Shown: positions 1-30,738, numbered from the stretch's first letter. The stretch is 64,000 nucleotides of DNA from Lingula anatina (GCA_051362555.1 CM120641.1:4402001-4466000); one strand, 5' to 3'. Numbers and translations are program-made. Notes: generated from the sequence alone by a model not told the origin.

Positions 1-578
1 AATTGTCTTATTATTAATACCAGAAAAATGTTTTATTTTATTTATTTATTTTTATTTTTTTTGCATATTTAGAAAACATATTTGATACGTGTCACAAAGT
101 ACTTAAAAAAAACAACTAAAAATGAGAAATCTTAAAAAATTTCAATGTTGAAACAAGTAAATATTATGTAATATGTGAGGAAATATAGTGCCATTATCTC
201 AGGTATTGTGCAGTTACCCAAAATATTGCTTCTAATGACCATTTGTGTTTGTGCTCGTCTTTGGTTTATGTAATCGTTGTGATCAATTTTTCTTGTAATT
301 GTTGGTGGTAGTATTTACAGTTGTAAGAATTATGTCCTTTTGACACCCTTTTACCAATAAAATGTCAAGAATATGTGGATATATTTTAAAGTGCATCATT
401 TTTACCTTATCCTGTCACTATTAACTGCATGACAACCTGTTAGATAATGTGTGCATGGGCAAAGAATCCCACGATGTACTTGTGTTCCTATTGTCTCTTA
501 CCTAACATCCATGATTCACAATAATTAGATGGCCACATTAAACAGTAACTGTTATATCACTTTGTCTTCACCTTCCAG

Positions 579-3500
579 GAATGCCTCCACCAAGGTTTGT
601 CATCCTGAGTGCCACTGAGGTAGAAATCCACTGGGAAATGCCAGCCAACCCTAATGGCATCATCACCCAGTTCCGTCTGATCAGAAACCCTGTGGGTGCC
701 ATCTTTTCTGGGGCCAACACTACTAGAATGTACATCAACCGTGGTCTCACCCCAGGAACGAGCTACAGCTATGTTGTCCAAGTTGTCTCCAAGGCAGGTT
801 CTGTATTCAGTGAGGCACGTGATGTGACAATACCATCTATCACCCCAGCTGGTATCCCACCACCGAAAAATGCCACTGCCTTGAGCGACTCACAGATTTA
901 TGTTGCCTGGGACCCTCCTGCTCAGCCAAATGGTATGATAGATCAGTACAAAGTGTTGCTGAATGGAGGCTCACAAAATGAGATGGAGACTGGCGTTGGA
1001 CTTGACTTTAGTGCCACATTCGCATACTTGGAGCCATTCACACTGTACAATGTTCGCATCAGAGCATGTATCAGAAATATTGAAAATAGCTGTGGCACTG
1101 GTCCTGGAGTGAATGTACGTACCTTTGAGGCTCCGCCTCAGGGGCAGCTTCCACCTGGCCTGGTGGCTAATGGAGCCAGTGTGGTTACTGTAGCATGGGA
1201 CCCTCCAGCCAGTCCTAACGGTATCATCACAGAATACAGAATACACAGGAGAGAGTTTGGCACAACAGTCGAGTTGTTGATCAATGTTCTCAACAATGCC
1301 ACATTCACTTTCAGAAATGCTGGCCCTGACCTCAAACCATTTACAGTATATGAGTACAAAGTTACTGTAGCTAATTCTAAAGGTACCGCAGTCAGCCCAT
1401 GGGCTAGTGTTCGCACACTTGAGGCGGCTCCACAGAATCTGGCTGCCCCAGTTCTTTCAACCAACAGTGCTTATTCCCTCCAGGTGTCATGGTCTCCTCC
1501 AGTGAAACCAAATGGTGTAATCACAAGGTACAAGATAGAGTACAGAGCAGTCCCCTTGGACCCTACTGTCACCACACCAGTTCTTCATGTCACAGTGAAT
1601 GGAGACATAACTCAGACCAGCTTCAGTGGACTTGAACCATACTCACAGTATGCTGTACGTGTAGTTGCTAACAATTCAGTAGGTGGCATTGTGAGCACTT
1701 GGCAGATGGCAACAACAATGGAATCCAGCCCATCTGATGTTGGCAACTTCACTGTTGAAAAGGTACCAAATGGACGCTCCGTGATTTTAAGATGGGAGGA
1801 ACCTGGAAAACCCAATGGGCGCATCACAGGATACAGTATATATGAGTATGGAGAGTATGTCAATGCAATATACACTGGTCTAACCAGATACTTTGAGTTC
1901 CGCAGGTTGTCTCCATACACAGAATATGCTGTACACTTGGAGGCGTGTACAAGTGTAGGGTGCGCCAGGTCACCTGCACAGCATTTCTTTACAGCAGAAA
2001 TTGCCCCTTCAGACCAGGCTCCACCCACTATGGGAGGAGCCAATGCCACCCATGTCAGGTTGTTATGGAAACCACCTGTCAATGCCAATGGAAGGATCCA
2101 AAAGTATGAGGTAATCAGAAGGACTGTGGGTGTGATTACCAAGCGTGCTGTCTCGGATCCTCTGGTTGTGTATTCTACCAATAAATCAGCAGACTCTTAT
2201 GAATATGTGGACTCTGGCCTCCGACCTTACACACAGTATGAGTACAAAATCAGAGCTACCAATTCTAAAGGATCTGTTGAAAGCAGCTGGCTAACTGTAA
2301 GCACAGATCAGTCCTCTCCTGAAGGTTTGGCACCCCCAACAGTGGAGTATGTCAGTGGCAGTGCAGATAGGTTGCAGATTAGATGGACAACACCTTCAAC
2401 AGCTAATGGCATCATACAAAGCTACCAGTTACAACGTAATGGAAGCACACCGTGGAGCTTTTCGGCTGATGATACCAAGGAGTATGTGGATAGCAATCTG
2501 AATGCCTTTACCACCTACAGTTATACCATTACTGCCTGCACTGCTGGTGGCTGTACCACAAGTCAGCCAACTTATACACGCACTAGGGAGACAGCTCCAC
2601 TGTTTGTAAACCCTCCCAGTGTCAGAACAGTCAGTTCTACCAGTTTGGAACTCGCATGGGTCACCCCACAGATTACCAATGGTGAGATTCTGTCCTATCA
2701 ACTCAAGATGGATGGAGTGGTTATCTACTCTGGAATCCAACTGAGACATGTGGCTGAGAACCTAGTGTCATACAGAGAGTATCGCTTTGTGATAACGGCA
2801 TGCACAGGAGGTGGTTGCACTGACAGCGCTTCCGTGGTCGGTCGTCCTTCTGAAGATGTACCTCGAATCATGCGAGCACCGACCCTGAATGTGCTCAGTT
2901 CCAATGCCATTGAGATAAGGTGGCAGGAACCGGACCAACCAAATGGGGTCATCACAGCCTACGAGTTACGTAGAGACAGTAAGTTAGTTTACTCTGGCCC
3001 AAGTACTTCCTACTCTGACTACGGTTTATTGCCAGGGGTGGAGTATGCATATGTTGTCACTGCAATAAACAACCAAGGTAGTGTGAGCAGCCCAGAGGTG
3101 AAGGCCACCACATACTCCTCCTCACCAGAGGGCCTCTTACCCCCAGTTCTCACTCCAGAATCCTCCTCAGAGATTCAGGCAACATGGCAAGCACCTGCTC
3201 AACCCAATGGAAACATCTACAACTACACGCTGTACAAGGATGATGAGGTGGTGTATTCAGGTACCCAGTTCAGCTTCAAGGTGACTGGTCTGCAATACTG
3301 GACAACCTACTCTTTCAGAATTCAGTCTTGTACAAACTCCGGCTGTGCAACAAGTACAGCTAGTAGAGCACGGACCTTGGAGGGCCCACCCTTGGGGCAG
3401 AATCCCCCCACTATGCTGCCCCTGGCTGATGGTTCAGGAAAACATGTTGGTGTGAGGGCGGAGTGGTTGCCACCATCTCGTCCCAATGGTGTGATCACTA

Positions 3501-6500
3501 TGTATGCTCTGTATAGGAGGACAGTGACCAGAGATGAAGCAGGTAAATGTTCAGGTCATATCTGCTGTGATACATGCTGCAATATATATAGTGTGCATAA
3601 ATACTGCTGTGATACATACTGCTGCAATACATACCAGTGATCTAAGCACTGAAAAAGTGAAAAAAAAAACTGCACCTGACACAGGTATATTATACATTTT
3701 TAATACAAATTTATCTTTAATAGTAGAGATATGTCTGTGTGGCTGGCTTATATTGTATTGAGTTATATTACGTACATTGCATGATGATGTACATGTATTA
3801 ATACGTGATTTTATAATCATCTCCATCTGTGTCCTGGCAGGGCGTTCCTCCTATGGTGCCCCAGTTCTGCTGTATAATGGCACAGCTCTGCTGTATGAGG
3901 ACCGTGACCTGAGTGCCCTCCTGGCGTACACTGAGTACCAGTACATGGTGACCGCCTTCAACTCCGCAGACAGAGTCAGCAGCATGTGGCAGACTGTGAC
4001 CACATTTGAGGCTCCCCCTGAAGGGGTACCACCTCCCAGAGTGCAGGTAAATATCACTGGAGTAGTTTGTGGTCCCTTAGAAGATGAGGAGACCACTTTT
4101 GTTTTCTTTTTTCTTCTGAACAACCTTTCCTTTGTGATAAATTTTAATAGTATTGTATTTGGGTAAGAAATGTATGTTACCCTTGTAAATAAATGTTCAG
4201 GTTTAGAAATATGCTGGATGGGAGGCAGAGGTACAATACATACAAGAAGGTTATTTGTTTACTGCCCATGGTGCTCATCTAGATGCTGACTGAAGGAAAA
4301 ATAAGAAGGCATATTTTTCTTATCAGCTACTGTACAGACTATGCCTAGCATAAATCCTAATTGCTTAGTGTATTACTAAATGTAAATTGCAGGATGTAAC
4401 AGCCACTAGTGTGAGAGTAGAGATTTTGAAGCCTTCAAAGCCCAATGCGCTGGTCAACAGCCTCAGCTATAATGTCATAGTTGATGATACAGTGGTAAGA
4501 TTTCATGTGACGTTCTGCTAACTGACTCAATAAATTTACTTACCTGTGATGCCAGTCTCATGTTTGTGAGAAAGATGCACTCCACTGCTGTGCTTAATAG
4601 TCATTGTCCAACACTATCCAACATAAAACAGTTATATGCTGACACAGTAGTTTTAAGAAAAATGTAATTTCAGATAATCTGGATTTCAATTCGCCCTTGA
4701 TAGTGTTGATTTTATGTTTTGAAAGTTATACAATCATGTTATCTTCAGATTGCTAATTCAATATCTGTTAGATGGTGTTTTTCTTCTGAAAAGAAGTTTT
4801 GATGTTTCTTTCATTATCCTTTTAAGGTCACCAGAAGTACATTCCTTGTCCAAGAGGTGACAGGTTTGCAGCCTTACACAACCTATGCCATCCGTGTAGA
4901 GGCCTGTACCTCTGCAGGCTGCACTACCAGTAATGCCACCTATGTTAGAACACTACAAGCACCACCCACTGGGCTGGCTCCACCCATTGTATCCAGTATA
5001 ACCAATAGAAGTTGTGTTGTCACATGGGCTCCTCCCACTTATCCCAATGGTATACTAGTAAGGTAGGCTAAAACCAGTGTTGTTTAGGTTTAAAAAAAAC
5101 TTACATATAAAGTCTTCTTGATTAAAAGTTGCTGTCACTGTGTTTGTAATATGGGTTGATGATTTATTATTGAACTCGTGATAACATGTTTGATAGGCAT
5201 TACCAACTTATTCTGCTCTAATGATATAATTATTCTTTATATTCATACAATTCCATAGAATAGCATTATGAATTTCAAAATCTTTTCCCTCTCACCTATA
5301 TTTTCAAGTACCATACACATTGTATTGATATACAAAACTTCCATTTCCAGGTTTGAGCTCTCCTACCACCTGTCCTGTCCTCCCCCTTACCAGCCCTTCA
5401 ACACTAGTGGTCTGTGCCAGGCCCAGGGTCCATATACCATCTACTCAGGCCTAGAGCTCCAATACACTGTGCCTAACCTGCAGCCATACACTAACTATGA
5501 GTTCCAGGTCAATGCCTTCAATGAGCTGCCAGGGGGAGTGGCTAACCCAGGCTGGACCAGGATGACCACTCTGGCTGGAGGTAGGGGTTTGTTTGATTGA
5601 TTGACTGATTTGTTAAATGATTGGTTGGTTGATTGATTGATTGATTAGTTGATTGATTGGTTGATTGATGTAAGGGTAATGCTGAGAATATATTTTTCTG
5701 TGTGTACTTTATTTACTGAAATGAAAATCCAAATTTGACCTCTTCTACTTTGATATGGCTCAATGACCTTATATATTGTAACATATACTTGTACCGTACA
5801 AGCTATTGCAGCTGGCATATTGTCACATGAATCACTAAAAAGGAAAAAAAGAACGATATCTAGTATATTGAAACATAGTCAAAATCGTAATCATAGAGTT
5901 TCCTGCATCTCCAGGAAAAGAAGAAACTTTTTCCATTAGCACAAATGCTGTCTTTTAAATGTTTCTCACCATCACATTTTATTATTATTTCTCTTCCAGT
6001 CCCAGAATATTCCACGCCCCCCAGGCTGTCCAAACAGGGCACCACAGTTGTAGTGGACTGGTCAGATAGCTTCCAGCTTAATGGAGAACTGCTGACCTAT
6101 ACTTTGCTGGCAGATGACCGCAAGACATACACTGGATTTGAGACCAGTGCTGCAGTAGAGAGGCAGACCAAAGAACAAAGTGAGTTTGGTGCTACAAATG
6201 CATGCACATACGCACGGACACATGCACACGCACATACACACACACACACACACACATGCATGCACATATACATGCATGCTTTTATGAATAACCTCAATTA
6301 TTCATAACCCAACAAGTTTTCTGACCCCTGATCCCCTTTTTAACTTTCAAGAATTAACAGTGCTGAACTTCTGAAACTCTATGTTGGTGTTAAAAGTGAC
6401 CTAAATTTTGAATTGTTCTTAACCTGTAAATTGTGATGTGTGTCAAATGTTTGTGTTGGGATTCCAATATATCCAAAGCTAGCCCACAATGTGTCAATTT

Positions 6501-8721
6501 TCTAATCACACACAAACGCACACTTGTATATAATATTTATGTGTTTACAGTTATCCAGTTTAAAGTCCGTTGCACAACAAAGATGGGTGTGGCTGAAACT
6601 CCAGTGATAGTATTTGACCCAAGCTCAGCAGATAATGTTGGTAAGTTTTCTGTGCTAGATTGCTGTATAAATAACACAGTATGATATTGCACTCTGTACC
6701 AGAATATTTCATAAGATAACCTGTATAAGTTTTGAAAAGATTTCTTATCTAACTCAGCTGTAGACATAGGAATAACCACTACATGTTTTTTATCCCTTGT
6801 GAAATTTATTATGCAGTAGTCTCTTCCCCAGTAAAATTAAAGGCTTGTGTACTCACAAGCAATATTGTAGCTTTAAACTATCACATACAATGGAAAGGCT
6901 GTTATTGGACATTAATTCTAACATCTGTTCTAACATTATTACAGCACCATCAACAACAACAGGTATATTATTCGTAGACAATTTATTACTTTGCATGTTA
7001 CACAGAAACATTTTCAGAAATATTTTTATTGTGATATGAATATTTTAGGCACCATCTGCAAGTGTATAATTACAATTTTATCAGCACACTATTTGTTAAA
7101 GCATGTATAGATTTGTTGAATTTCACAAAGAAAATTTTTTGTTTACTGACAGTTCATGTAAATGCACAGATTTCTTTTTTATTTTCATTTACATTGAACA
7201 CTTAATTACTGGGTTTTTAATTGTTTGCTTTGATAAACATGTCAAGCCAGTGGAAATATAAAATAGAAAGAAAAGCATGCACATTTTTTATTTTGTTAAA
7301 CAAGATATTATGAGATGAAATGACCAAAACACAGAGATAGATTGCATAACCCAAGTTAAGAATTAGCTTTCTCAGATTCATGGAATATGTACAATTGTGC
7401 AGATTGTAGTCCTACAACTATTTAAACCTACTGTCATTGAAGACAAACAGTCACATCCAGCAATGACTTATTGCCATGAATATTCAGCTATTCAATTTCT
7501 ACAATCCTTGTTCTAACAACAGATGAGAGTTCATGTATAACTTCATTTAATCAACTCTCTAGCTCCTTTTGTTCTCCAGGAACAGTGGCTCCATCTGTTG
7601 CCCCACAGATCCAGCTCCCATTTTATCAGGAAGTGTGGTTCATCGCAGTGATTGCACTGGTGGCATTGCTGCTACTGATGACAGGCATAGCGTGCTGTCT
7701 GCGCTACTCTGGAACCAGAACGCCCTATGTGAGGGAGAGGATGCCTCTGCAGCCCAGACAGAAGAAATATGGCAATCAGATTGGATATTGTGTGGATCCT
7801 TATGATGGAAGCATTATTACCAATGTAAGGAAAGTTATGCTATATTTGAATGATGTGTCTGTATTTTATAATAGTAACTATAGGATTTAATTAAGTTGAA
7901 ATGTAGTATCGTTACACTTTATGCATCTAACACAATTAAATACTGCTTCAGGACATTCCTCAGAGATCTCCCAGTCAGACAGGTAGTGTCAGAGGTCGTG
8001 CACAGAAATACATGTTGGATGACCATGAAGAAGGTTTTGTGAACCCCGCATATTCCACAGCGTCCATGCGCAGCAGGAGTAACAGTTTTGTTGATGTTTC
8101 ATTTGATAAAACGTCGAAGTCGTCAAAATATTTGGATGATGATGATGACCCAATGTGGGATGGACATGTTCATGACAGTGGCTTGGTTAGTATGGCAGTA
8201 AGTATAAGGGGAGGGGCATTTGTTTAATGGGAGATAAGGGAAAGGGATGGTTCACATGTTATATGTGTATATGCATATCAGACCTTATTTGAAACAGTAA
8301 TCACTTTGAATACCAATACTGTGAACTTGGAAGCCCATATGTGGTGTCACGAGCTGGGTTCAGTGGTTTAAGTAAAGGGACGAGGAAATGGATGGTGTGG
8401 GGGGGGGGGGGTTGGAGGATGATTGAGGAGGCAGATATAAAGGGGGATGATCTTTTGATATCTTCATTGGTTAAAATATGAGCCATCCTGTAACCAGCAG
8501 GTGGAATGCCTAATTAAAGATGCCGACTACCAATAATTTATTGTAATTTTTCAAACCATTGGCAAGTACAAATGTCCTATCTTCTTATGGGTATGTCAGA
8601 CTGATAAAGATTTTATTCCTTGCTTTCCCCACAGGGGCAGTTTGATGATGATGACTACGCCTCCAGTCATCCAGTAAGTGTCACCAAGGAGCAGACAGTC
8701 TTCACAGACACTCATTTATAG
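579..8721 (+). CDS. USH2A: Usherin (USH2A), 3' portion: FN3 repeats, transmembrane helix, cytoplasmic tail with PDZ-binding motif; 5' end lies outside the window
   Basis: Frame-consistent GT-AG exons: 579-3542, 3841-4046, 4393-4494, 4827-5062, 5351-5580, 6000-6179, 6551-6640, (6945-6962 possible microexon), 7580-7824, 7952-8185, 8635-8721. Tandem FN3 repeats (W.PP..PNG.I..Y; L.PYT.Y; ACT..GC..S), TM segment FYQEVWFIAVIALVALLLLMTGIACCL, C-terminus VSVTKEQTVFTDTHL*, which matches the known usherin DTHL PDZ ligand. Confidence 0.95.
5594..5668. repeat. (GATT/GGTT)n microsatellite in usherin intron
   Basis: Imperfect ttgattga/ttggttgg tetranucleotide run. Confidence 0.8.
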
Positions 8722-10828: not shown

Positions 10829-13344
10829 TTATTTGACATTTTTCCCACCATGTATTTTTTCGTGTCTACCACAGTCACTTTTTCTAGCAAATTTCTTACC
10901 ACAGGACTTACATGTATATGGCTTTTCTCCAGTGTGAATTCTCTCATGTTTCACCAAAGTGCTACTCTGCGTGAAAGCTTGTCCACAAAAATGACACTGA
11001 AATGGTTTATCATTTGTGTGAATTCGCTCATGTCTTGCACAAATTTTCTTCTGCGTGAATGTCATTTTACAAAAATGGCATGCAAATGGTTTTTCTCCAG
11101 TGTGAAGTCTTTCGTGAAACACAAGATCCATTCTCTGCACAAATCCATTGCCACAGTATTGGCATGTGAATGGTTTGTTTAAAGTATGAATTTTTTCATG
11201 TTTGACACAAGAACTTCTATCAGAAAATGCCTTTTCACAGACACTACATTTAAAAGGTTTTTCACCCGTGTGAATTCTTATGTGTCTAATGCTGTCACAT
11301 CGATGTGCAAATGCCTTTCCACAGAACTCACACTTGTACAACTTGTCATTCTTGGGGCGTTCCTGATGTTTGCTTGTTGGAACTTTCTGGGCCTCACCAA
11401 GTATAACAGGACTACCCGATTCCAACTTGTTGCAGCAGTTTTCATTTTCTGTGATGAGAAAAACATCTTTTTTACTTTCAGTGTCTACTCCAATAGTGGT
11501 TTGTTTAACTGAAGTATTGGTTTGAAATGAACTTTTATCTGCCACTATGGGGTGCTCTCTTTGTGCAATATGCAGATCAACCTCTATGTAATTTTTACTG
11601 GAAACTGAAGCATGTCCATTATCAGCCGTCAATGAAAAGTTTCCATCTTGAAATTTAACAATATTTTGAACTGGTTTTAAACAAGTGTCAGTAGAATTTA
11701 CAATCAGTCCATTATCAGCTGTGGCTTGAAAGTGTCCTTCCTGTATTCTGTGGCCAGTTTCTGCATGAATCTCACAGAAGTTGGAGGTCTCTCTTTTTTC
11801 AACCACATCCCCAGGGTTGACTTGTTTCACAACGGATGTCATCTCAGCTGTAGATTTAATAAATGACTTTGGAAAATTTTTATCTTGTTTTGCATCACCA
11901 TTATTCTGGCCTACCACGGTATTAACTGCATTTGCTTGAATATCAGGTAAACTTGAAAGATTGGACTGTTTATTTTGTACTTTGCGAGCATGTATTCGTT
12001 CATGCCTTCCACAGTCACTATTCGAAGCAAATTTCCGTCCACAATACTTACAGGTATATGGCTTTTCTCCAGTATGAATTCTTTCATGTTTCACCAAAGT
12101 GCTACTCTGTGTGAATCCCTGGCCACAATAATGACACTGAAATGGTCTTTCATTAGTGTGAATCCTTTCATGTCTCTCCAAAGTTTTCTTCTGTGTGAAA
12201 ATCATTTTACAAAAATGACAGTCAAAAAGTTTTTCTCCAGTGTGGATTCTTTCATGCAGCACCAGATCCCATCTCTGTATGAACCCATTCCCACAGAACT
12301 GACAAATAAATGGCCTATCATAATTATGAAGTCTTTCATGTCTGACGCAAGCAGCTTTCTGGGTAAATGCCTTTTTACAGACTCGACACAGGAAGGGTCT
12401 TTCGCCAGTGTGTACTCTTTCATGCTTGATATTATCACTTTTCCTTGAAAATACCTTGGTACAATATTTGCACTTGTGTAAAGTTTTACCCTTGGGTGAA
12501 TTTGGTTGTTTGGCTATTACACTGAGACAACTCAAATCTGAGGCACTGGAATTACTTTTGTTTTCTTCTTTGAAATTATGTGCATCTATACTTTTGGAAT
12601 CACCATCTTCAGGGGCCTCATCATCGTCATACATGGATGATGATTCACTCTTCTTGTGTTTGTTACAATGAGGGGATATTTCCTCTTGTATCTGGTTATT
12701 GTGTGGAACCTGTTCATCATAACCAAGTGTATATTCCTTTGTCATAACCCGAGTCATAAGGAGATTAACAATTCTGGAATAGAAAAATCAGATTAAAATA
12801 TATCAGTCATGCACAGTAAAAGAACTGTGTTCAGATATTACTAATTAAAATATTTACAAAAATCTAAAATTCAAGAAATTTGCATTTATTTAGCATTTAA
12901 TATTACAAAATGACTCAAATATGTTGATTTTTCAGCACTTAGGCACTTCAATTTTGGGATTTTACAGAATTGTTAGAAATCACTAAGACAAAACTCATGG
13001 ATCTTAAACGATCAACTGTCTTTTAAAAATGCAAAATTATGCTGTGCAGATCAGCAGCAAAATCAGAAAATAGTAATATTATTATGATGACAATCATGCA
13101 TAATTATAATAAATAAATGAATACAGTGCTCTGGCAGACACAAATTTCATTCTTTTCTTTAAAACCTGTTCACAGCTGCTTACTTCAGCAAAAGAAAATT
13201 ATTTACAGTACATGTATATATCCAATATTGCTTTCTTCATTTCCATTTCTTCTTTACAAATGAGATAAAAGCAGAGTAAGAAGAGATTAATTAAAATAAA
13301 ATACTAATTTACCTATTTAATTTATCAGGTTTTGGTGCAGACAT
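10829..13344 (-). CDS. C2H2 zinc-finger protein, 12 fingers in two 6-finger arrays
   Basis: Main exon 12773-10829 with CxxC-x12-HxxxH fingers and TGEKP-type linkers. An upstream exon (ATG at 13344 to donor at 13313) splices in frame to give MSAPKPDKLNR|IVNLLMTRV. A probable non-coding first exon has its donor at ~13593. Confidence 0.9.
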
Positions 13345-15482: not shown

Positions 15483-15644
15483 GATGCATTTTTAGGAATG
15501 TATTTATCTTGAAACAAGAGGCTATAAAAATAATTTCATTTACATTATTTGAAAAGCAAAATCAATAGGTAGTACTGCTGATGCAGCAAAATCTCTGTCC
15601 ATGAGGAGAACAACGGAAATCCAAGAACGTTTTTCTAAAACTTA

Positions 15645-18383
15645 TTATTTTTTCCAAAATTTTTTGGGTGTCCATTTCTTCTTTTGCTTCTCCCTAACTT
15701 TTGGGAGTTCAAAATGGTCCAAGGCATATTCATCAGCAGGTTCTCCTAAATTTTCTTCTGCTAACACATCACTCTTTCGGCTGTCTGAGTCGGAATCATA
15801 AATGGCAGCATCATTTACGAGTTTAGTACCAGGGAAAGGTGGTGGAAGACGGTGTTTTGGCTTAGGAGGTGGAGGAGGTGGGCCTCTTGATGCAGCATCT
15901 TTTTCGTCATTGGAGAAATGGTTCTCATCTGTCTGTGGTACCAATGGCAATGGTTTGTTACTCTTCTTGCTCATGAGTTTTGTTTGCCTCACTGTGCCAT
16001 CCACTGGATAGTAGTTCTTTGCTGGAGCTACTAATTCATGTAGTTGTGAGGAAGTTGGTCTGTTTTCAGGCAAAGGATGCCAGCACTGTTTCATGATGTC
16101 ATAAAAAAGATCTGCCTTTTCTAGAGGTGTTTTCTTATTTAGCTTTCCTTTAGTAGAAGGGAAGTCCATAATTTTGCCCTGTTTGACAAATATGGCTGCT
16201 TCTCGGTTGTTCTTCTCTGGATATGGTGGCTGCCCATTGCTGAGAACTTCCCAAAGAAAGATGCCAAAGGCCCACACATCAGACTTTGTGCTGTATACGG
16301 CTTCTTCCAATACTTCTGGTGCAGCCCATTTCACAGAGATTTTTTCATTTTTGCAAGCCCTGTAGCGGTCATCTTCTACATATCTTGCCATCCCAAAATC
16401 TGCTAACTTTGCATGGAAACTTTCATTGAGGAGGACATTTCTGGCTGCAACATCACGATGCAGTATATATCTCTGGCGCTCAAGGTATTTCAAAGCAGAT
16501 GCAATGTTCTCAAAGACATCGAAGTAAGGCAGATCTGAGACTTCATTATTCTTCAGCCATTGTCGAAGATTTCCACATGGCATCTTCTCCATAACGATGG
16601 CAAATGGTTCTTGTGAAAAGCGAACTCCCACCAGCTTTATTATGTGATCATGGCATAGGCGCATCAAGGTCTGTGCTTCATTCAAAAAGTCATCCTCAGC
16701 TGAATCGGAAACATCTTGTGTATGGAGCATTTTTGCAGCCACATCTTGGGTTTTTAATGTAGCATTGACAACAATACCAAACTGCCCATTTCCAAGCTTT
16801 GTGCCTTCTTGGAGGTCATCTTCAATCTCAAAGGATTTCTGGTAGTGATGACCAGGTGTGATGGCAAGGTGGGCTTCTTTAAATGGACGTCTCAGTCTTG
16901 TGACAAGTCCATATCTGCTGCAGCGGAAATAGTTCACCAAGTCCTTAAGTGTTGGAAACACGCGGTAATCTCCACCAAGACTAAACTCTCTGTCTTCTTC
17001 TTTTATTGGATAGGGCCAGACTTGGCCAAACTCATCACAAACTGCTAGGTAATAACCATCATTCTTGGAGGAGGGATAGACCATGAAGCAGCCTTCTCGT
17101 TTTCTTTGCTGAAGCATAAAAGTGGCATTCTTGGTAGTAATGCGAATGGGATAGAACCATGGTTCTTTTTCAGGTCCACCATAAAGAGAAACCTTTGAAG
17201 CTGGAATGCAAAAAGATCTCCCATCTAAATCATAGGCAATGCATGCAGGTGGTTGGTCTCTCAGATAGTCACCGCTGTGTTCTATCAGGAGTGGTGTTCC
17301 TTCTTTAAGGCATACAGCATTTTCTTCAACTTTACAAAATTCAGCGCCATCTACCTGTATGACTGGGTAATTGGAAGTGGACTGTCGTCGAAATTTTTTT
17401 GCTACCAATTTGGCTCGTGTAGCTTTCTCCCCAGCAGCTGACTTCAAGGCAGATTTGTGATCATCTGTGTACTGTGGCTTTATCACTTTTCTTTCTCTCA
17501 CATTTGCATAATCGGGTTCCTTGTCTTCTTTGTTTTTGTCTTTGTCTAACCTCTGCAATGCCGCTGCCACTTTCCCACTCCCAGCATTGGGTTTTGGCAT
17601 TACCTGAGGTTTTTGCTTCACTGCTGTCTCAGCTCCACTCTTTTTCTCCAAACCCTCAGGAATAAGGAAGAATTTTTTGCATGCAAATGTTTCTGTGCAA
17701 TTTTGAGATGGCTGTGGAAAATCTTCATCTAAAAACACCTCGCTGAAGTCATGCAAAGGAAGGACTATTACATCTTCTTTAAGAAAGGCTTCAACTAGCT
17801 CATCTGGTTCATGGGCACTTGAATAACGTGACTTTTTAGAGTATTTGGATTTGGGTTTGGTGCCTTTTCTGGCTTCTTGCCTTATCTTTCCTACTTCAGA
17901 TATCCCCATGTTGGAGACATCTTCTGACACCAAGATGTACCCATCATTGTCCAGCTCATCTTCATACAGATGATCAGTTGTGTCATTTGGATGAACGGTC
18001 CCCACATTATCTTTTATTGACTCCTTTGTTATGGCTGCCAACAGATAACTTGAATCATAAAAATATTCATCATCATCCCTCTCCTCTTCCTTGTCAAATG
18101 CATCTTGAACGAGGTTTCTCAAATGTTCTTGGCCGGTTTCAACAAGAGCTTTCATTAAGACCTTGAATGCTGCGTCCCCACGATGCGAAATAATTTCTAG
18201 GAACTTTTCACAGCTCTTTTGACGAGTTTGACATTGCCGTACATCTTCATGCATGTGGTCTGTGAGCACCCCTTCCTGTATCAGGTGAGCACTGAACTCT
18301 GGGTCCAACACATCCAGGTCACGGATTAGAGCCACTCTACATTTGTTCAAGGCTTTGCGGTACTCTTCACGCATAGACCCCAT
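15645..18383 (-). CDS. CARD - degenerate SH3 - degenerate SH2 - Tec-family-like tyrosine kinase (912 aa, single coding exon)
   Basis: N-terminal CARD pattern (MREEYRKALNKCRVALIRDL...LIQEGVLT...FLEIISHRGDAAFKVLMKALVETGQEHL). SH2-like segment (EPWFY...EGCFMVYPS...FPTLKDLVNYF). Tec-like GLVTRLRRP linker. Kinase motifs GNGQFG, VAAK, HRDVAARN, DFGMARYVEDDRY, VKWAAPE, SDVWAFG. Acceptor at 18391 and a 5'UTR exon donor at 19337. Confidence 0.9.
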   Translation of the reverse strand: MGSMREEYRKALNKCRVALIRDLDVLDPEFSAHLIQEGVLTDHMHEDVRQCQTRQKSCEKFLEIISHRGDAAFKVLMKALVETGQEHLRNLVQDAFDKEEERDDDEYFYDSSYLLAAITKESIKDNVGTVHPNDTTDHLYEDELDNDGYILVSEDVSNMGISEVGKIRQEARKGTKPKSKYSKKSRYSSAHEPDELVEAFLKEDVIVLPLHDFSEVFLDEDFPQPSQNCTETFACKKFFLIPEGLEKKSGAETAVKQKPQVMPKPNAGSGKVAAALQRLDKDKNKEDKEPDYANVRERKVIKPQYTDDHKSALKSAAGEKATRAKLVAKKFRRQSTSNYPVIQVDGAEFCKVEENAVCLKEGTPLLIEHSGDYLRDQPPACIAYDLDGRSFCIPASKVSLYGGPEKEPWFYPIRITTKNATFMLQQRKREGCFMVYPSSKNDGYYLAVCDEFGQVWPYPIKEEDREFSLGGDYRVFPTLKDLVNYFRCSRYGLVTRLRRPFKEAHLAITPGHHYQKSFEIEDDLQEGTKLGNGQFGIVVNATLKTQDVAAKMLHTQDVSDSAEDDFLNEAQTLMRLCHDHIIKLVGVRFSQEPFAIVMEKMPCGNLRQWLKNNEVSDLPYFDVFENIASALKYLERQRYILHRDVAARNVLLNESFHAKLADFGMARYVEDDRYRACKNEKISVKWAAPEVLEEAVYSTKSDVWAFGIFLWEVLSNGQPPYPEKNNREAAIFVKQGKIMDFPSTKGKLNKKTPLEKADLFYDIMKQCWHPLPENRPTSSQLHELVAPAKNYYPVDGTVRQTKLMSKKSNKPLPLVPQTDENHFSNDEKDAASRGPPPPPPKPKHRLPPPFPGTKLVNDAAIYDSDSDSRKSDVLAEENLGEPADEYALDHFELPKVREKQKKKWTPKKFWKK

Positions 18384-18692
18384 TTTATACCCTGCAAATG
18401 AAAAAAAAAATAATAAAATTTAATAAATATCTGCATTTATGTAATGACATATACTGTCTGCTACAGCACCAACAGAAGCAAGGGCTTCCACAATTATTAC
18501 TTTTTACAGATATTTTCAAACAAGGTACATGTAAACACATAAAAAAAGAGCAAAATCAGGGCATATTTAAATACGTTTTCATTTTTACATTTTCTTTCAT
18601 ATGAAAAGGTGGATTCAGTAACTGTTGATCTACATGTATGTCATCAAAATAAAACTGCAGCAACATGGAAATAAAATTTTGTATGTCCCACT

Positions 18693-18848
18693 CAGTGTTT
18701 GCCTCTTAGGAAAATAAGTTGCTGGACCGAAAGTCCAGCCATCTTGAAAAGTAGCTGGACTGAATGTCTGCCGGGTGGGAAAACTTCTCAGCCCGTCCTG
18801 AAAGTTGTCAGCCCCGGGCAGACCGTCCAGCCTTAATTTCTAACACTG
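18693..18848. mobile_element. Probable hAT-type MITE in the 5'UTR intron of the kinase gene
   Basis: Terminal inverted repeats CAGTGTT...AACACTG. Flanks gtcccact / accccact (6/8 match, degenerate 8-bp TSD). Internal repeated gctggac/gtccagc subterminal motifs. Confidence 0.5.
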
Positions 18849-19028
18849 ACCCCACTTCATTTAGTAGGTACAAATGTACTTCACCTATCAAATTTTAATG
18901 GTTAACTCAGACAAACAGAGTCAGGCTCAGTGTCAGATTTCAATTAAAATCTCCCTGGAGTTAAACCTTTCTGCGAGTTCAGCATACCAGTATAAAGAGG
19001 CCTACACATTCTGCCAGCTAGTGTATAA

Positions 19029-19240
19029 TTAGTATAGTATAGTATAGTATAGTATAGTATAGTATAGTATAGTATAGTATAGTATAGTATAGTATAGTAT
19101 AATAATAGTATAGTATAGTATAGCATAGTATAGTATAGTATAGTATAGTATAGTATAGTATAGTATAGTATAGTATAGTATAGTATAGTATAGTATAGCA
19201 TAGCATAGTATAGTATAGTTGTACTGTAGAGTAGAGTAGA
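19029..19240. repeat. (TAGTA)n pentanucleotide microsatellite
   Basis: About 200 bp of near-perfect tagta repeats. This explains the spurious YYTIL-repeat ORFs. Confidence 0.97.
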
Positions 19241-19549
19241 GTAGCTAGGGTATATAAGTGATAACAACTCACAAAATTCACAAACGGCCTGAACACAGAA
19301 AGTTGAAATACGGGTACTGTGTTATTTATTGCTTACCTGTCCAAGTCTGGCTTGTAGCTTTTATTCGAGCATTTAGTGACTTTGGGTTAATCACCACTAG
19401 AGTCTACCATTCGGCTTCCAAATCATTTACCTATAGATCTGATAGATCGGCTGATAGATTTACCTGAAAACTACGCAAACTACTTAATCTAATAGATCGG
19501 CTGATGGATTTACCCGAAAACTCCTACGCAAACTTCCTACACACTCTAC

Positions 19550-21292: not shown

Positions 21293-24200
21293 TTAAAGTT
21301 GCATTTTTCTCATTTGCTCTTGTATCCAGTCGTAGTACATAGAGACCACAGTGTAGACTCCCGGCTTTTTGGGCCATCCACAACCATCTCCGAAACTCAC
21401 TAAGCCTACAATATAATGAGGGAGGAAAAACATAAGGTGGCAGTTATAACACATAAAAATGCCGTAAAAACATTTCTGTTATGAATAAATCGCATCAGAT
21501 AAATCTTAACATTTTTAATCTAGATTTACGGGGAACGTGTATGCTGACATTGTGTAAGTCGACATTTAGCTTGTGTAGTGCATGCATCATTACCCTCTCC
21601 TTTGTGCCATCGGTTTATAGGCATACCCTATTTGGGCAGGTAGGCTTACTTGTAGGCTTATACCCTGTTGATGGCACCCAATAGATATTTCGCTTGTAAG
21701 CAAAATATTTGTTAGTTTCTTCGACGAGAGGACGGCTGTGATGATGTTTCTTTACTATAAAAATTGTTCTACTTTTCATTTTTTTTTTTTTTTTTGTTCA
21801 ATATTGAATTTTTTTGCTGTTGCAATTTTGCACAATATACACAAATGTAGGTAGCCTGAGCGAAATCAAATTGAACTGAATGTATGTCCATTATCAGCTC
21901 TCCCAACCAATGCTTTAAATATTTAGAAAATTCCAAAACTTACCGAAAAGATACCATTTCCCGTCATGTGGGCACATCAACGGCCCTCCGCTGTCCATCT
22001 GAAAAAAAAAAAAAACGTATAGAATTTGAAGCTCTTGAAAAGGTACATTCAAACTGGAGAAAAATAAAAAACTACCCTTGTTCGTGGTTAAGATTGTGTG
22101 GGATAATGCTTGAAACTGATGCTATAAACTATGCTTGAATTGTTTGTGAAGTACATGTAGAACCATTTGTTAATAGAAAAAAAGACAAACTGTAATAAAA
22201 GTTGTTGCAATTGATATACTGAATCTGTTCACCTACATTAACACAACTAATTTTCAAACTTGAAATCTTGCGGCATCTACATGTAACAACCAGATGGCAT
22301 ACAGTATCTATAATTTGATTGCATGTGAACGGCAGTTGGACCAATTTCCATTTGAAATTGACCCTGTGTGAACCGTACCTTGCATGAGTCTCTCCCGCCT
22401 TGCAGACTAGCTGCACACGCCATTGTGTCAGAAATATTGAAGGACGGCAGCAGATTTCGACACGTTGTCATTTCCAAAATCGGCACCTCCACATAATACA
22501 GCTTGTCGCTCCACTGCCATCTCGGTATCTTGTCGTTTGACTCTGCCTCTGAAATTAAAACACAAGGAAAATTAAAATTAAAACCCATACATTTAATTGG
22601 TGATGTTTGCAGTTTAACCACTTAATTTTAGTCCGACAATGAAACTATGATATTACCGATGATTTAAAAGAGAACAGATTTACGAATGTAGTTTCAAATT
22701 TTTTGTCATTTTTTCGATACGTCGACTTGAAAGCAAAGTGACACTGCTGCAAGGGTTTTATTCCGATGAAAAATAAGAACAAAACGTAAATAATAATACT
22801 GTTCGAGTCTGAACGAGAAGGTTGCTAAAGCAGGACAGAGCAAACAGACCCCTTATTAAACAGTTGGCTCAGAAGGCTGAAGTACATATACACTGTACAT
22901 CGACGACAGCTAACATTTTCTGGAATCACTTTATCAATAAATAAAGCGTGATAATAATAATTATAATAAATTTATGATCAGGCAGTGGTATCTGTATATT
23001 ATATTTTACTTCTCTTTTTATGTTTTTTTTCACTATATGAATATGACTCTTATAGTAAAAAATAAATAATTAGATAAATAAAAGGACAGAGACCGTCAGC
23101 AACACCCGTCATGAGATTTACCCGGTACATACGTTTAGAAAAGCCCCAACCAGCGACAATGCATTTGGTTCCGCCATCTTCTCGGAAGGTAGGCAAACAG
23201 ATAGGGCTGACGTATTTACTCCCTGCCACAGGTCGGTCAAGTTTCACCAACGTCACATCATTGTTCAGAGTTGCTGGATCAAAATCTGGATGGTTTTCCC
23301 ACGTAGCTACAGTATAAACTTGCTCAGAACCCTCCTCCAGTAGCAGGTCTGACTCTCCAAGCGTGATCTGCCACTGGTCTAGTCTTTCACTAAATTAATC
23401 ATAGTAGGTTTTGTATAATGAAAATACATTTTAAACACCATTTGCTAGTGGTGAGCGCGCTCGCGCTCGCGAGAGAGAGAGAGACAGAGAGAGAGACAGA
23501 GAGATCAACTGTAAATTACTGATGATCATAACAGGATATACATGTACTTGTACCTCGATTAATATACATATGCAATTAAAGGAGAATCAATTAAGTCGAT
23601 AGCATAATATTTAGATAACAGCAAATATCTAATGAGCAAAAAAAAAAAAAATTATTTGAAATACATGCAGCTAAGAGAGTTAGATACCGCCACACAACAA
23701 AACAAAATCAGAGAGAGAGGGGATATAGAAAGAAAGAGTGATGATAACGATAAAAATATCAAATAATTTCTCAGTTAACACCCGTGGTATTTTCATCAAT
23801 CATCTTTATTCCAGCCATTAACTATGTTTTAATACAATAATATGAAAATAGATGTGTTCACAGAGAAATATGGATGATATTCTTCAATGTAAAAAGAATA
23901 GAGAAAGGACGTGGCACACATGGAATACACGATACATGTAACTTACCCGAAAAACGTAGCACAGTGAGCCGCAGTGAGCATAAACTGTGGGGCAATAAGT
24001 ACTCCTCCACACAAATGACCCAGTATAGGGGGGCGACCATAAGCTATTTGTGCCTACAATATATGATAGAACATTCGACTGTGAAAAAGATGTACATTTC
24101 ATTGGCATTGACAAATAAATGAAAAAGGTGTAATTGGCACTTTGTAGCCATTTCAGTCTTAAAAGTGAACTGCGATTTACAAAATTGCACATACTGTATA

Positions 24201-25427
24201 TCGATTTGTAGATTTGCCAGAAAGCAATATACACAGATTTACTCAAATAAAGATGAAATATTTAACACCAATAACCGAAATTTGCAAGCGTATATTGCAA
24301 CTTTGTATCTTATCAAAATTCCATAAACTTGAAATGATTGCTGTGGCACTTCCAGCAGAAAGCGCATCATCTGACCCACGTATTCTCTAAGCAATTAAAA
24401 GGGTACAAGATCGATTTTAGGCAGAGGAAAGGAACTTATATATTGCAAAGAGAATTATTCCCTATTCCCCCTAGAATAGATAGATCGTTATTTTAGAAAT
24501 TGCGGTGAGCGAAAAATTCCATTACCCCCATCATTTCATTACGCGTTGTGACCAAATGCGCGTATTTTTGACACTTTTAAGTCATTTTTGCTTAAGAGTC
24601 GAACTTTCTAATGCGCTCAATTTGGGCCAAATAATGCAAGTGAATAATGATTCATCCCGTAAGTGTCGGTGGTAGCATTTTGGATAATGATATTCAAATA
24701 ATGGTGCGAAATGGTCTTTTCAAGCAACATTTTTGTTCGAATAACTGTGGTTCATCTCTTTTTCCTGACCAGTGTTTTTATTTGGAAATATCATTTATCA
24801 TCATGTTACGTAAACTTACCTGTTCTTTTGCTTTCAGTATTTTAAAACGTACCACGTAAAACACCATTCACCTTATAAAGCACCCTGAATCAACAGACCT
24901 CACCTCTGTTAACAGTCAAAACCTAACGGAGGAGCGCATACTCTGTAGAGTTTTATTTACCCTAAGTTCTCAAAAACACAGTAACACTCGTTCAATTCTA
25001 ACACCCCAACTTCAAGAGAAGTCACCGTGACTCTCCCCCATACCTCTATACCGACAACTCTGCGTTACCTAGTTAAATCAGTAGAGATCTAGAAAAGAGG
25101 CGGTATATTAACTCACCACCCAAGGCCAGTTCCCTGGCTCTGCGGGTTTACCACCGATGATCCTCTTTCTACTGTCTCTGAATCCGGGCGTGGGGAGACT
25201 CTGAACGCCGCATTGGTGTGATGGAGGTTCTGTAGGGGGGAATTTGGATAGAAACTCTTTAAGGCCCTTGTCATCTGTGGAACCGGGTTTTTCTTGCCAC
25301 CATTTGTTATCTTTAAACCATAGCCGGCCGTGCAGTTGGTTTTCTTTATATGGAAAATGGTGGTTATATTCCCATGAGTTACCGTTGAAAATGAACCGGC
25401 CATCCGTAGTTGGTATGAGCCCGCCAG
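21293..25427 (-). CDS. Trypsin-family (S1A) serine protease 1; 5'-most (signal peptide) exon uncertain
   Basis: Exons 25427-25117 (QCGV...RKR|[15 protein letters not shown]), 24053-23947 (LCGGVL...LTAAHC), 23389-23133 (NNDVTLVKL...PICLP...AGWG), 22548-22379 (...GGRDSCK), 21998-21944 (MDSGGPLMC), 21405-21293 ([16 protein letters not shown]...*). Catalytic His/Asp/Ser and Asp189 are present. Confidence 0.9.
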
Positions 25428-28400
25428 CTGAAATTAAAGGGACAAGCTTGACAGGTTACGGTTATTTGTTTAGTTTTTTTTTTCATTGTGATAACTGTAG
25501 TGTCTTTGGCTGTGCTCACCGTTTTGTTTTAATGTATTGGCGTGAACTTAATGCTTCATGAGACGATTTCGCTTCACGGGAGAAAACCAGTTTTTCACAT
25601 GACTGATCTAATCATCTTCTCCATTCCCTGTACGACATCTGTTTTGATGCGTAAATGTAGGTCTACAAGAGCAGTGCTCGTGACAGGCAGAGAAAAATAT
25701 GTACCATTGCATGCTCAGTTTTCATCTCATTACCTGAATTTTGAATTAGGTTGGACCTTTTTCTGTTGTTGGAAAACACGTGTAATGCAATGATTGCTTT
25801 TTTATTTCAATTAGACAAATTAGAAAGTATTGATTTTATGGAAATGACTCGGAAAATAAACACTGAAATTGTCCCATCAAGTACATCAAGTAAATGATGT
25901 TCAAGATCGCAATAGTTCTAATTCACTAGTTCGGAAAAAAGGAAAAAAAAAAAAAACGGGTATAAATTAAGGTTTCGGTGGTCGTGCTCGGTCAAGAAAA
26001 GGTCGTCTTTTACGCGTACGGTGATTAAGTGACGGAGTGATTCCTTTGAAAAATATTCGACGACGTCATTAAATTTGCTTATGTTTTATTTCGTGTCAAT
26101 ATTCCGCGGGCATCTCTTTTACTGGCATTCATATCCAAATCATGTGCTACAACCATTTGGAAAAATCACAATATCATTTTAAGATAAATGAAAAATACAG
26201 AAAAAAAGAAAAAGAAAAGGAACAGAGAGAGAGAGAGAGAGGGGGGGAGAGAAAAGATAAAAATAAAAGAAAAAATAATTGTATCCCAACCGACAGTGTT
26301 GAAAAAACAAATGCTTGGATAATCATCCATTTAATTCTGGCTTCAGATACTTGGATAACCATGTATTCACTTCTGGCTAATATTGACTAAAGAAAAACTG
26401 TATAATAAACTTTTAAAAAACATTTTAGTACGGTTTACTACATCTTTTTTCTAATTCAACAGAGCTTGGCTACCTTTAACTTTCTACGAAACTAGTGGAT
26501 GAAATAAATAATTAATCTTAATACAAATGACACCACGTCGAGACACTGTAAACAGTAAGCAATTAGAAATAATTTGGCAGCTGCTCCTACTGATATTCGT
26601 ATAAATATAAAAACAATATTCTACCTGATAACTGAAAACAGATCAGAAGAACCACTATCAAACTCATCTTCATCCTTGCTATATATATAGTCACAGTTGT
26701 GGGATCTTATTAATAAATAAGGTGTGAGTCTTCAGCGTCCTCACTCCACCACGGCGTCAAAGGGGTCCAAGTTAGCTTGAGCGTCCTTTAAAACTGGCAC
26801 ATATTCTGGACATAGGTCTTGGTATACCCATGGAGAACGTCAGCACAATGTGTTTCCCTCCTCAACTCCTCATTAAGCGCCGATAACATTCAACAAATAT
26901 CGCAGTTTTTGTAAAAAGCTCTAAAGACGTGTTTCTGTTGCCAGCACGAGCTGTTGAACCTTTTGCGCCTGTCCTTGGTTCTACCCTATCGTTAAGTGGC
27001 TACTAACAACGCATAGGTGTTGAATTCTACTTTGTTATTCTACTCTGCATCAATTTGGAGGAACTGTTTTGTCGATTCAAATAAAAAAGGAAGCGAAGAA
27101 AGAAAGAAAAAGAAAAATTACATTAAAAATTGCGTCAAAAATTACAACAATCGCAGAAAGGTCCAACTATGACGGAGTGCTGTCATTCAAAACGCTTCAG
27201 TCACGTTTTGATATTTTTAAGAGCAAAGGGAGTCATTAAACTGCATTTGTTCGTCAATATATCTATTTCCTAACAATACTGTATCTGCTGAGGGCTCTCG
27301 TACTCTACCTTATCCATCAATCTCTATTAAGTAATGACTAAATTCCTTTTTCCCAGACGTACATAATATCTGTCAATATCGTAAAGGGGTGTTTGTCGAG
27401 CCAGGCAACGCAGCCATGCTATCTCCGAGTTATTCGATTACAGAGGCCAATAGAGACAGTGAGGCATTAGGATTTCTCATATCATGATGTGCTCTTTATT
27501 AGATTACCATTACTTTACTTTATTAAGCATGGGGAGTACAGGGACATAGGGTCGAATGCTCAGCTGCTGTGTTTGAGCCATACTAATATCCTCTGTATTT
27601 CCCTCTACGGCGTTCGTATTTCATTTATGCAAAAGTTCCAGACGAGTGAAGAAGAGAATGATTTGGGGATTATTATTACCTAACCTAGAAATATTAAAAG
27701 AAAGACTGAGCGATTTGTTTGTTGATAACTGACTTGGCTTTGAAACACCCACTGTGCAGATGATATTTATCTACATGTATATATTTTAGATACCATCGTA
27801 TCATACAAAATTGAGAACCAATAAAAACTAACGATGTGTCACCCCCCAAAAAAAGCTTCATTAAATTAAATGTAAAAATAAAGTAAAAAAAGTGTCTAGC
27901 ATGCCAAAGGATTAGTCTTTGACTACTGCAAATAAACAATGCGTTTGTTGTCTATTATCTATTTATTTTGGTGGGTTGTCCCAGCTACAGTGTCTCTCGT
28001 GACGTAAGGAGACGGATGTAATATTGGCGCCTTTGGTCTTTTATTAGAATATGTACGCTTTTACAATTTTTTTTGGCAATATGGCACGCTTCTTAAATCT
28101 TAAAGGATAAAAGAGTTTTTAGAAATTTTTATCAATATCATTTCGGTCGTTTTTTATTTTTGAGAAAAACGTTCTCGTCATATGTCGGCGTGTCATTAAA
28201 TATATACAAATGTTTTATATGACATAGTCATCATCTCACATCAATCGATCTCCAATTAAAGCATTACGTGTACGATAGCGTTTTTTTATGTTACTTCAAC
28301 TAATTCTGTTTAAATGCACAATACAGTTATATCATACAGTGCTAATTAATCACAAAATCCAATTAAAACACCATTAGTTGGCGTCATTGATCTTTACGTA

Positions 28401-29897
28401 AGTGTTTGTACCGTCCCATCATCATAACTATCACTGAGTTTGTACTTGGTCTCAGTATCGTTTCCTAAGCTTATACATGTGTATTCCCTGCATTTCCCGA
28501 AACTCTTTGTAGGCGTTTGATAATTGATTTTGTGATGGATTGAATTTAGTGATAGTGTGGTCATGTCTTACACTGCTTGCCACAGGGATCTGCCATCTCT
28601 TGTATCTGCTTCTTCCACGCAGGCTGAAAGATTCCCTTGATAGTTACGGGAGTAAAATGAAAACTTTTAAGATAAGAAACGCGTCTAATCTTAGATACCG
28701 GAGCTCCGCCGAAACAAGTGTCCAGGGGCGTTCACATTTGTCGTTTCGTAAGTGGTGACCATGGCTATTTGATTTCACGCTTTCTACCTTCGTAGAATAT
28801 TGATTTTTAAAAATTAATGATTTCGGTTAAAATGTTATTCGTGGTTACTTTACGTAGTGCAAATACAGTATACTGCGGCCCACAGGAGCCTGTACTTGCT
28901 TAATTCAGTAGGCCAAAAAGTGCCAAAACGACTAGGATTTCGTGGATTTCGCATTTTGCAGGACCTCGCATAATTCATCCAAAAGCTATGTGTCTCTCTG
29001 AACTGGATAAACATTTGAAAAGAGTAAACGTCAAGAAAAGGAAGGGATTTTTTTTTTTTTTTTTGCAATCTCCTTGCCTGCACTACCGTCCCGGACGTTA
29101 TTGGACTTTGCTACTGTAATAAGATAACGATAGTCTTTTTATTTTAATAACACTGGAAGGCCACATTGAGCTGAAACCAACTGAATGTGGAACGTGAGTA
29201 TCATATTTTCTCACGCCTGGTCACACTGCATTGAAGGAAAGGAAGAAGAACTAGTGAGAGTGCCATTTTTGTAAGTGGTTAAAACATCATCACCATCCCA
29301 TTTAGAGTTATTGTCCTGGGGGGTGCCCAGGGGGGATTGTCCTAGAATCGGACAAAGGTAATATACCGGTCAGGACTACAGTTTTAAGATACATGTATAT
29401 GAGAAACTAAACAAAGGCTTATTATTAATTTGCTTGACTATTTTATTGACAACTGAAAATCTTAATAAAATGTTAAAATACCATATTGATAAATGGCAGT
29501 GGCACATTAAAAATTAAGCCCGCTTCAAATCGACGGATGAAGAGATAGATTTTTAATTGTCTTTCGATATTTTTTACTGGGAGACTACACAATGAATCAG
29601 TCGAGTTTTCTATGCACATCGTAAATGATGCTTGTTACAGTAGCCCCCATGGACACTGCTAAATACTCGTTTGTAACGCATTCAACATAATTGAGTTTTT
29701 TTCAATCCCGAATATTTCCATATAGAAAGAAATGCAATAAAATGAATTCAATTCATAATTCATTTTATAGACGTTTTTCAAATGTCAGCCATAAGGTACA
29801 GATGTACCTGGGTTAGTTCACGTGTGCTTAATGTTGATGAAATGCGTGTAATGCTTTGAATAGACGTTAGCTACTGTGTAATTCAACAGGATATAAA

Positions 29898-30687
29898 TTA
29901 GTTGGTTCTTATCGTTCTCTCGATCCACTTCTTAAATTTCGCCACGTCAGTGTAGATTCCAGGTCCGTTGCCGCATCTTAGCTGTCTTGTCTCTTGCTCT
30001 TCTCTAACATTTTCCTCGTCTGCAATTATTTCCTTCAGTGGCATTACGAAAGCTGGCGGCAGTTGAGACTGAACACTGTATAGACGGTCAGGACCATTTA
30101 GACCAAGAGAGGTTACTCCTACAAGTACAATAATTTTTGATATGAAATTAATTTTGTGAAAGATTGCCACACTTGTTTTAACTATAAAAGTGTTTTTCTA
30201 ATACGGAGATGTGATGAAGCATCTCACCGAATTAACATAAATAAACGAATGAGAATTATCATACGAACAAACTCTTCATTGGAATTTTAGGATAAAGAGA
30301 GAGAGGGGGGAACGGTTGGTAAAAATCTTCTGTGGATACCAAATGAATTGTAAGGTAAAAGAAAGATAAGTTGATGAATGGTAAAAACCAAAGAAAGTAA
30401 TTGCGGTAGGTGTGGCAAGTCGAATGTGATAGTTTTACTCAATGGATGCAGTAGTTACATCCACTGTCAGGAATGCCTTCACTGCGGTTCTCAAAATGGG
30501 CAGATCAATTGTTCGTCAAACTATGAGCAAAAATAGAAATAAATTAAAATCAAAATGGCAGGAATATGCACCGGGCTTGCAACCTCGTGAATACCTACCA
30601 TACAATATCCACCTGTTCTTATAACGACATGCAAGAGGACCGCCGCTGTCGGCCTGAAATAATAATATGACTTATTCCAAGCCTGTG

Positions 30688-30738
<51 letters not shown>

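Follow-up and report, generated by a model that had tools for sequence, protein, structure and literature searches.

The window analysed here comprises 64,000 nucleotides of the Lingula anatina genome (GCA_051362555.1 CM120641.1:4402001-4466000), and positions are counted from its first letter. Its minus strand contains a gene for a 912-aa protein in which an N-terminal CARD is followed by a linker, an SH3 predicted to be split, an SH2, a tyrosine kinase domain and a tail. Elsewhere in the window we find the 3' part of an FN3-repeat receptor gene with a 3.1-kb exon (542-7890, plus strand), which we take to be usherin-like, a C2H2 zinc-finger gene with two internally similar finger arrays (10829-12787, minus strand), and exons of several serine proteases, presumably trypsin-like (21300-31700, minus strand; 41509-41868, plus strand). 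Neither paralogues of the kinase gene nor other CARD genes occur within these 64 kb. The features of the gene are as follows, from its 5' to its 3' end:

19337-19369, minus strand: upstream non-coding exon, 3' end (donor CAG/GTAAGC at 19337; 5' end not mapped)
18392-19336, minus strand: 5' UTR intron with a MITE-like repeat (acceptor TTTGCAG at 18392)
15645-18383, minus strand: coding sequence, 912 aa, single exon (open reading frame, Pfam, RNA depth, no joints listed)
18105-18359, minus strand: CARD, aa 9-93 (Pfam, six-helix model, family profile against the PDB)
18003-18071, minus strand: post-CARD helix, aa 105-127 (recognisable family-wide; low pLDDT)
17937-17939, minus strand: Tyr149 in an acidic DGYI motif, candidate phospho-site (Tyr in 18 of 20 aligned rows)
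17763-17798, minus strand: SH3 N-terminal piece, strand A and first RT-loop strand, aa 196-207 (model, alignments, motif)
17316-17762, minus strand: predicted disordered RT-loop insert, aa 208-356, carrying Tyr292 (DYANV) and Tyr305
17181-17315, minus strand: SH3 C-terminal piece, aa 357-401 (BTK alignment, model; canonical WW and NY residues missing)
16884-17159, minus strand: SH2, aa 409-500 (Pfam aa 413-486, E 1e-7; BTK and structure alignments)
17076-17078, minus strand: Tyr436 at the SH2 betaB5 Arg position (alignment)
16035-16808, minus strand: Tec-related tyrosine kinase domain (Pfam PK_Tyr_Ser-Thr aa 526-783, E 3e-69)
16362-16364, minus strand: activation-loop Tyr674, equivalent to BTK Y551 (alignment)
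15831-15881, minus strand: proline-rich segment PPPPPPKPK...PPPFP (PPxPPKP-like motif in 24 of 42 family members, shuffled mean 0.02)
15648-15689, minus strand: polybasic aromatic C-terminus, net +8 in 14 aa, candidate membrane anchor (similar patch in 29 of 42)

The reading frame opens with an ATG at 18383 and runs without internal stop to the termination codon at 15645. Raw RNA reads cover it entirely, from CARD to tail, in four of four runs, at a depth that is modest in each (tissue and treatment of the runs are unstated), and no splice joints are listed inside it in these runs. In two stranded runs the depth lies on first-mate-plus, which indicates minus-strand RNA. In run X7 at least 18 reads stop aligning at the splice acceptor just upstream of the ATG, and their loose ends match 28 of 30 letters at 19340-19369. 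If the upstream exon extends that far, its in-frame reading meets a stop codon 78 nt ahead of the ATG and contains no Met; the CARD is thus the true N-terminus, with no PH exon upstream. A PH-coding exon upstream is rejected, since the spliced 5' exon is non-coding. The sequence-only reading of this locus had supposed that the CARD stands where a PH module once stood, and this agrees with what we find, as no PH-TH was detected and no room is left for one upstream. The 5' UTR intron itself holds a 156-bp MITE-like repeat with CAGTGTT terminal inverted repeats (18693-18848), on which RNA reads from other repeat copies pile up, and a (TAGTA)n microsatellite of about 38 copies (19030-19244). Tec genes are multi-exon, unlike the single coding exon seen here, and the family may have arisen from a retrogene.

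Runs X7 and X9 show many fixed differences from the window. Both carry the same species label, and their divergence over 15500-19000 suggests a separate population or a cryptic sister species. Among the 39 listed of about 170 differences within the reading frame (X7/X9), which fall in 36 codons, those in the kinase are silent in 11 cases versus 4 replacing, and those in the linker silent in 2 versus 5 replacing. The public record of the protein (P0050) holds only the last 490 residues and begins at residue 423, so that the CARD and the SH3 are invisible to architecture searches.

The CARD, first proposed from the DNA alone, is borne out by Pfam (E 2e-13, 50.5 bits against a cut-off of 23.9) and by a six-helix model with a pLDDT of about 90. 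A family CARD profile built from 10 rows was run against the PDB, and among the best 60 of 99 rows the scores were 66 bits for caspase-9, 62 for RAIDD, 50 for Apaf-1, 48 for CARD9, 34 for BCL10 and 24 for MDA5, with MAVS absent from these 60. By profile comparison the CARD resembles those of caspase-9 and RAIDD, a similarity to human and worm structures that names no partner. An RLR/MAVS-type CARD, one of the earlier suggestions, is not favoured, given that RLR CARDs score far lower in this ranking. A complex prediction with four copies of the CARD reached a score of 0.35, versus 0.36 for one control. N-myristoylation of the N-terminus (MGSMRE) was considered and set aside, because the motif is not conserved in relatives.

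Pfam returned no match to SH3, PH or the BTK motif in the 912-aa protein. What had been described as SH3-like is upheld for the C-terminal half, by alignment to BTK and by the model; the domain as a whole has no Pfam match, is degenerate and is predicted to be split. In both AlphaFold2 models an ordered island at aa 196-207 (mean pLDDT 94 over aa 196-205) is followed by a disordered stretch and then by four strands at aa 357-401. A fragment model superposes on the SH3-SH2 of ABL with Z 14.8 and an rmsd of 5.5 (151 of 163 residues) and on that of HCK with Z 14.7 and an rmsd of 6.2 (154 residues), in both cases starting in the island, and its top Foldseek matches are SH3-SH2 tandems. The SH3 is accordingly modelled as split by an insert of ~140 aa in the RT loop, its predicted first strand lying ~150 aa upstream. 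In the family alignment the first-strand motif is conserved, at a distance from the second piece that ranges from 42 to 604 aa. In the Owenia protein P0124 the insert is missing and the alignment to HCK runs from the RT loop onwards; with a profile of 18 canonical SH3s this protein alone scores (10.9 bits) among 44 family proteins. The canonical ligand surface (ALYDY, WW, PxNY) is absent and the ligand-binding aromatics are missing. The SH2 is likewise recognisable as such, the Pfam match supporting the initial description, and is altered where it should hold phosphotyrosine: at the betaB5 position the binding Arg is replaced in all 42 family rows (Tyr in 40, Phe in 2), against Arg in 20 of 20 Tec rows, and the alphaA2 Arg is gone as well. 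In BTK, the mutation R307G at the betaB5 site is reported to impair phosphopeptide binding strongly (PMC7210950). With an SH2 that lacks the Arg and a predicted split SH3 that lacks the aromatics, the module differs from the standard Tec reader.

The kinase domain appears catalytically intact by motif, as had been claimed: VAAK (K551), the alphaC Glu (E569), HRDVAARN (D644/N649), DFG (D662) and Tyr674 are all present, together with the GLVTRL linker. Its highest-scoring PDB sequences are full BTK modules (196 bits over aa 381-778), versus 173 for ABL1, 171 for HCK and 168 for SRC. A fold search with the full model retrieves the tyrosine-kinase fold, with Fes, Syk, Abl and Ret tied and the subfamily not discriminated. 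The Pro of the P+1 loop, typical of tyrosine kinases, is Ser in this protein and is kept in 12 of the 42 family rows. The tail after the kinase domain extends over 127 aa with proline-rich and polybasic segments, and its basic patch, present in 29 of 42 members versus a tail-shuffled mean of 6.3 (maximum 13), is found in none of 20 Tec rows.

The distribution of the family was explored by several searches. A first one gave five close relatives, one of them from Capitella teleta. From a profile search of 1.84 billion representatives (50%-identity clusters) the best 150 matches were used, and Pfam was run on the five first relatives and on 91 proteins that were in this list or linked to it. Besides the Lingula anatina gene, at least 20 representatives pass the Pfam CARD cut-off, four near-copies being left uncounted. 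Thirty proteins were looked up and four of them are named, two from Owenia fusiformis, one from Branchiostoma and one from Montipora; both Owenia proteins are CARD-SH2-kinase, which places the family in annelids too. The CARD is retained across deep branches of the family clade, and Pfam finds a PH domain or BTK motif in none of the 42 family rows. In 21 of these rows the CARD is undetected even with a family-built profile, and many of them look N-terminally truncated; the sub-clade of P0047, P0048, P0053 and P0054 (support 100/99) begins at the post-CARD helix, and its missing CARD may be a real loss. The activation-loop Tyr is present in 38 of 42 rows, and YED[IL]-type sites occur in long inserts of family members. 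All five catalytic residues are kept in 23 rows. At least one is missing in the other 19, including 6 of the 18 with a Pfam CARD, and these members are predicted pseudokinases, situated on several separate branches; catalysis thus seems dispensable in many paralogues. A profile word-search with a 20-row alignment matched only the partial record of the protein itself and one plant kinase, and ESM Atlas searches with two homologues gave no CARD-bearing cluster among the families listed, small clusters lying outside that search.

Phylogenetic analysis places these sequences with the Tec kinases. A first tree of SH2 plus kinase (70 rows, LG+G4; incomplete kinases and multi-kinase matches without an adjacent SH2 excluded) unites the 42 family rows and three tandem modules in one clade (100/99), sister to a coral DED kinase (97/84) and inside Tec (100/96). 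In a second tree, computed under a site-mixture model from 42 rows that exclude predicted pseudokinases, the family (100/100) is again sister to coral DED kinases (97/85), and Tec plus family is recovered at 98/91. The AU test rejects a grouping of the family with Src/Frk/Abl rows (p=0.018) but does not reject the family as sister to all Tec and DED rows (p=0.06). Within this sampling, which contains no Fes/Fer or Syk, a family that is Tec-derived or Tec-sister is well supported. The Tec affinity noted in the sequence-only reading is thus sustained by the PDB ranking, by both trees and by the rejected Src/Frk/Abl grouping. A common death-fold ancestor of the DED and CARD kinases is suggestive only, the branch that unites them being short and joining two long stems.

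Taken together, the gene is real and expressed, and its architecture is conserved. Since three defining Tec features fail (PH-TH, SH3 groove, SH2 arginine), we treat the group as a family of its own, one that is new to the listed animal tyrosine kinome. The suspicion that the architecture falls outside characterised families is in line with the open literature: full-text searching of open PMC/bioRxiv brought up no description of SH2 tyrosine kinases headed by a CARD or a DED, a search that leaves aside InterPro and subscription papers, older SH2-domain surveys among them. The text of the holozoan tyrosine kinome paper contains no CARD, death, annelid or Capitella, and one of its supplements no CARD, DED, Capitella or Lingula, its GitHub data being outside the search. 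Other death-fold shuffles are described in PMC2575513, PMC5094078, PMC4342544, PMC8662601 and PMC9573974, with no CARD-SH2-kinase in the available portions of these texts. The CARD-Tec family is apparently undescribed so far.

How might such a protein work? BTK is reported to be activated when its PH-TH modules dimerise and Y551 is trans-autophosphorylated, and activation is reported to require a distinct surface of its SH2 as well (PMC7210950 and PMC10132808). We propose, with about an even chance of being right, that the Lingula protein is a Tec-derived cytoplasmic tyrosine kinase in which a CARD replaces the PH-TH and which is switched on by CARD clustering instead of lipid binding. In keeping with this, the nearest relatives outside the family also begin with a domain for homotypic interaction, a DED in Montipora and a SAM in Branchiostoma. 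The CARD would dock on a cell-death or immune platform, of CRADD/CARD-caspase or CARD-CC/BCL10 type, or self-associate, and the crowded molecules would phosphorylate one another on Tyr674, just as BTK molecules do on Tyr551 when their PH-TH modules dimerise. The active kinase could then phosphorylate acidic tyrosines in its own linker, in the RT-loop insert and in platform proteins, which would give outside SH2/SH3 adaptors places to dock. Its own SH3-SH2 pair would no longer read ligands; with an SH2 that lacks the arginine and an SH3 that lacks the ligand groove, the pair is likely kept as an allosteric clamp. The basic C-terminus may supply the membrane contact once given by the PH, and on these platforms catalytically dead paralogues may act as scaffolding or as a brake. 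As to partners, CRADD and the CARD caspases-2/-Y are reported in annelids, molluscs and brachiopods by lophotrochozoan surveys, which record no APAF-1, PIDD or ASC (PMC11463336). An Apaf-1 apoptosome is thus unlikely in annelids, contrary to the apoptosome-like platform first suggested, and with a CARD of caspase-9/RAIDD likeness, CRADD/CARD-caspase platforms are the likelier partners. Annelids have also been modelled as retaining a BCL10-dependent paracaspase (PMC5978004).

A wider scenario, which we offer tentatively as possible though on the unlikely side, would have an ancient "death-fold Tec" lineage predate the split of corals and bilaterians. In it the PH-TH would have given way to a head able to polymerise, a DED in corals, a CARD in annelids and their kin and a SAM in amphioxus, and tyrosine phosphorylation would have been wired directly into caspase-activation platforms; on the CARD branch the SH3 and SH2 would have become non-reading and the RT loop a phospho-scaffold, with pairs of active kinases and pseudokinases tuning the output.

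Other explanations deserve consideration. The CARD could be a private module for dimerisation or autoinhibition, in a kinase engaged in ordinary growth, adhesion or developmental signalling apart from caspases and immunity. The PH-TH of BTK is reported also to stabilise autoinhibition (PMC7210950), which would suit such a role. So would the modest-depth expression in all four runs, whose tissue and treatment are unstated, and the conserved PPxPPKP and YED[IL] motifs, which fit generic adaptor docking. Nevertheless, the CARD retains the caspase-9/RAIDD pattern, and the family diverges fast and gives rise to pseudokinases repeatedly, features that are commoner in immune genes; we consider this alternative fairly unlikely. 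A second possibility is that the family consists chiefly of CARD decoys or scaffolds which damp caspase activation, kinase activity being secondary. The inactive members predicted on several separate branches (19 of 42), the likeness of the CARD to a caspase prodomain and the long disordered inserts rich in motifs all speak for it. Yet the Lingula anatina copy and 23 of the 42 rows keep the five catalytic residues, and the differences in the kinase domain are mostly silent among the 39 listed of about 170, and we regard it as distinctly unlikely. Finally, a fusion that arose by chance, recently or through mis-assembly and serves no conserved function, as the public record that begins at residue 423 without a CARD might suggest, is very improbable given that RNA depth is unbroken over CARD and kinase with no joints listed and that at least 20 other representatives share the architecture, including the two named Owenia proteins.

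If the protein is indeed a Tec-derived kinase switched by its CARD, the family is a candidate link, within one chain, between phosphotyrosine signalling and death-fold platforms, for which mammals use separate Tec/BTK and inflammasome proteins. The two fused functions already meet in mammals, as mouse Tec is reported to be needed to assemble a caspase-8 inflammasome (PMC4256681). With APAF-1, PIDD and ASC reported absent in annelids, the family provides a testable candidate for the control of CARD caspases there. Additionally, it amounts to a natural experiment on the Src module, in that a PH-less kinase with an arginine-less SH2 and a split SH3 could reveal the role of an SH3-SH2 pair unable to bind ligands.

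Among known systems, the Tec kinases (BTK, BMX, TEC, ITK, TXK; Btk29A) share with the family the SH3-SH2-kinase order, the GLVTRL linker, the Y551-equivalent Tyr and the position in the tree. The family differs from them in the CARD in place of PH-TH, the split and degenerate SH3, the change of the SH2 Arg to Tyr, the 127-aa tail, the single coding exon and the many pseudokinase paralogues. One Tec kinase, Txk, lacks the PH domain and the BTK (TH) motif (PMC8662651). RIPK2 also combines a CARD and a kinase in one chain and is reported to form CARD filaments (PMC6168553), but its CARD is C-terminal, its kinase is a Ser/Thr RIP kinase and it has no SH3 or SH2; CARD-bearing RIPKs are reported in vertebrates only (PMC9573974). 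In the Lingula protein the CARD is N-terminal and the kinase matches tyrosine kinases.

An SH3 fold broken by a variable insert, as predicted here, has a counterpart in the MAGUK and CaV-beta proteins. Their HOOK insert precedes the last SH3 strand, whereas the insert of the present family follows the first strand, within the RT loop, and can be as long as about 600 aa. The interruption of the MAGUK/CaV-beta SH3 by the variable HOOK is described in PMC12650144. In Branchiostoma, XP_078669492.1 (P0051) has the order SAM-SH2-TK-SH3-SH2-TK, with both kinase modules in the family clade; it differs in its SAM head, the tandem modules, a canonical SH3 and the Arg in its first SH2. The kinase after that first SH2 is a pseudokinase. 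Another tandem protein of the clade, P0060, has three kinase stretches and possibly a decayed N-terminal helical domain. The DED-Tec proteins of Montipora (P0127, P0200, P0201) include two paralogues in M. foliosa. These DED-SH3-SH2 "TXK-like" proteins (XP_068754925.1 and two from M. foliosa) carry a DED where the family has a CARD and keep a canonical SH3 and an SH2 with its Arg, and they offer a parallel in the form of a death-fold head on a Tec module in the family's sister group.
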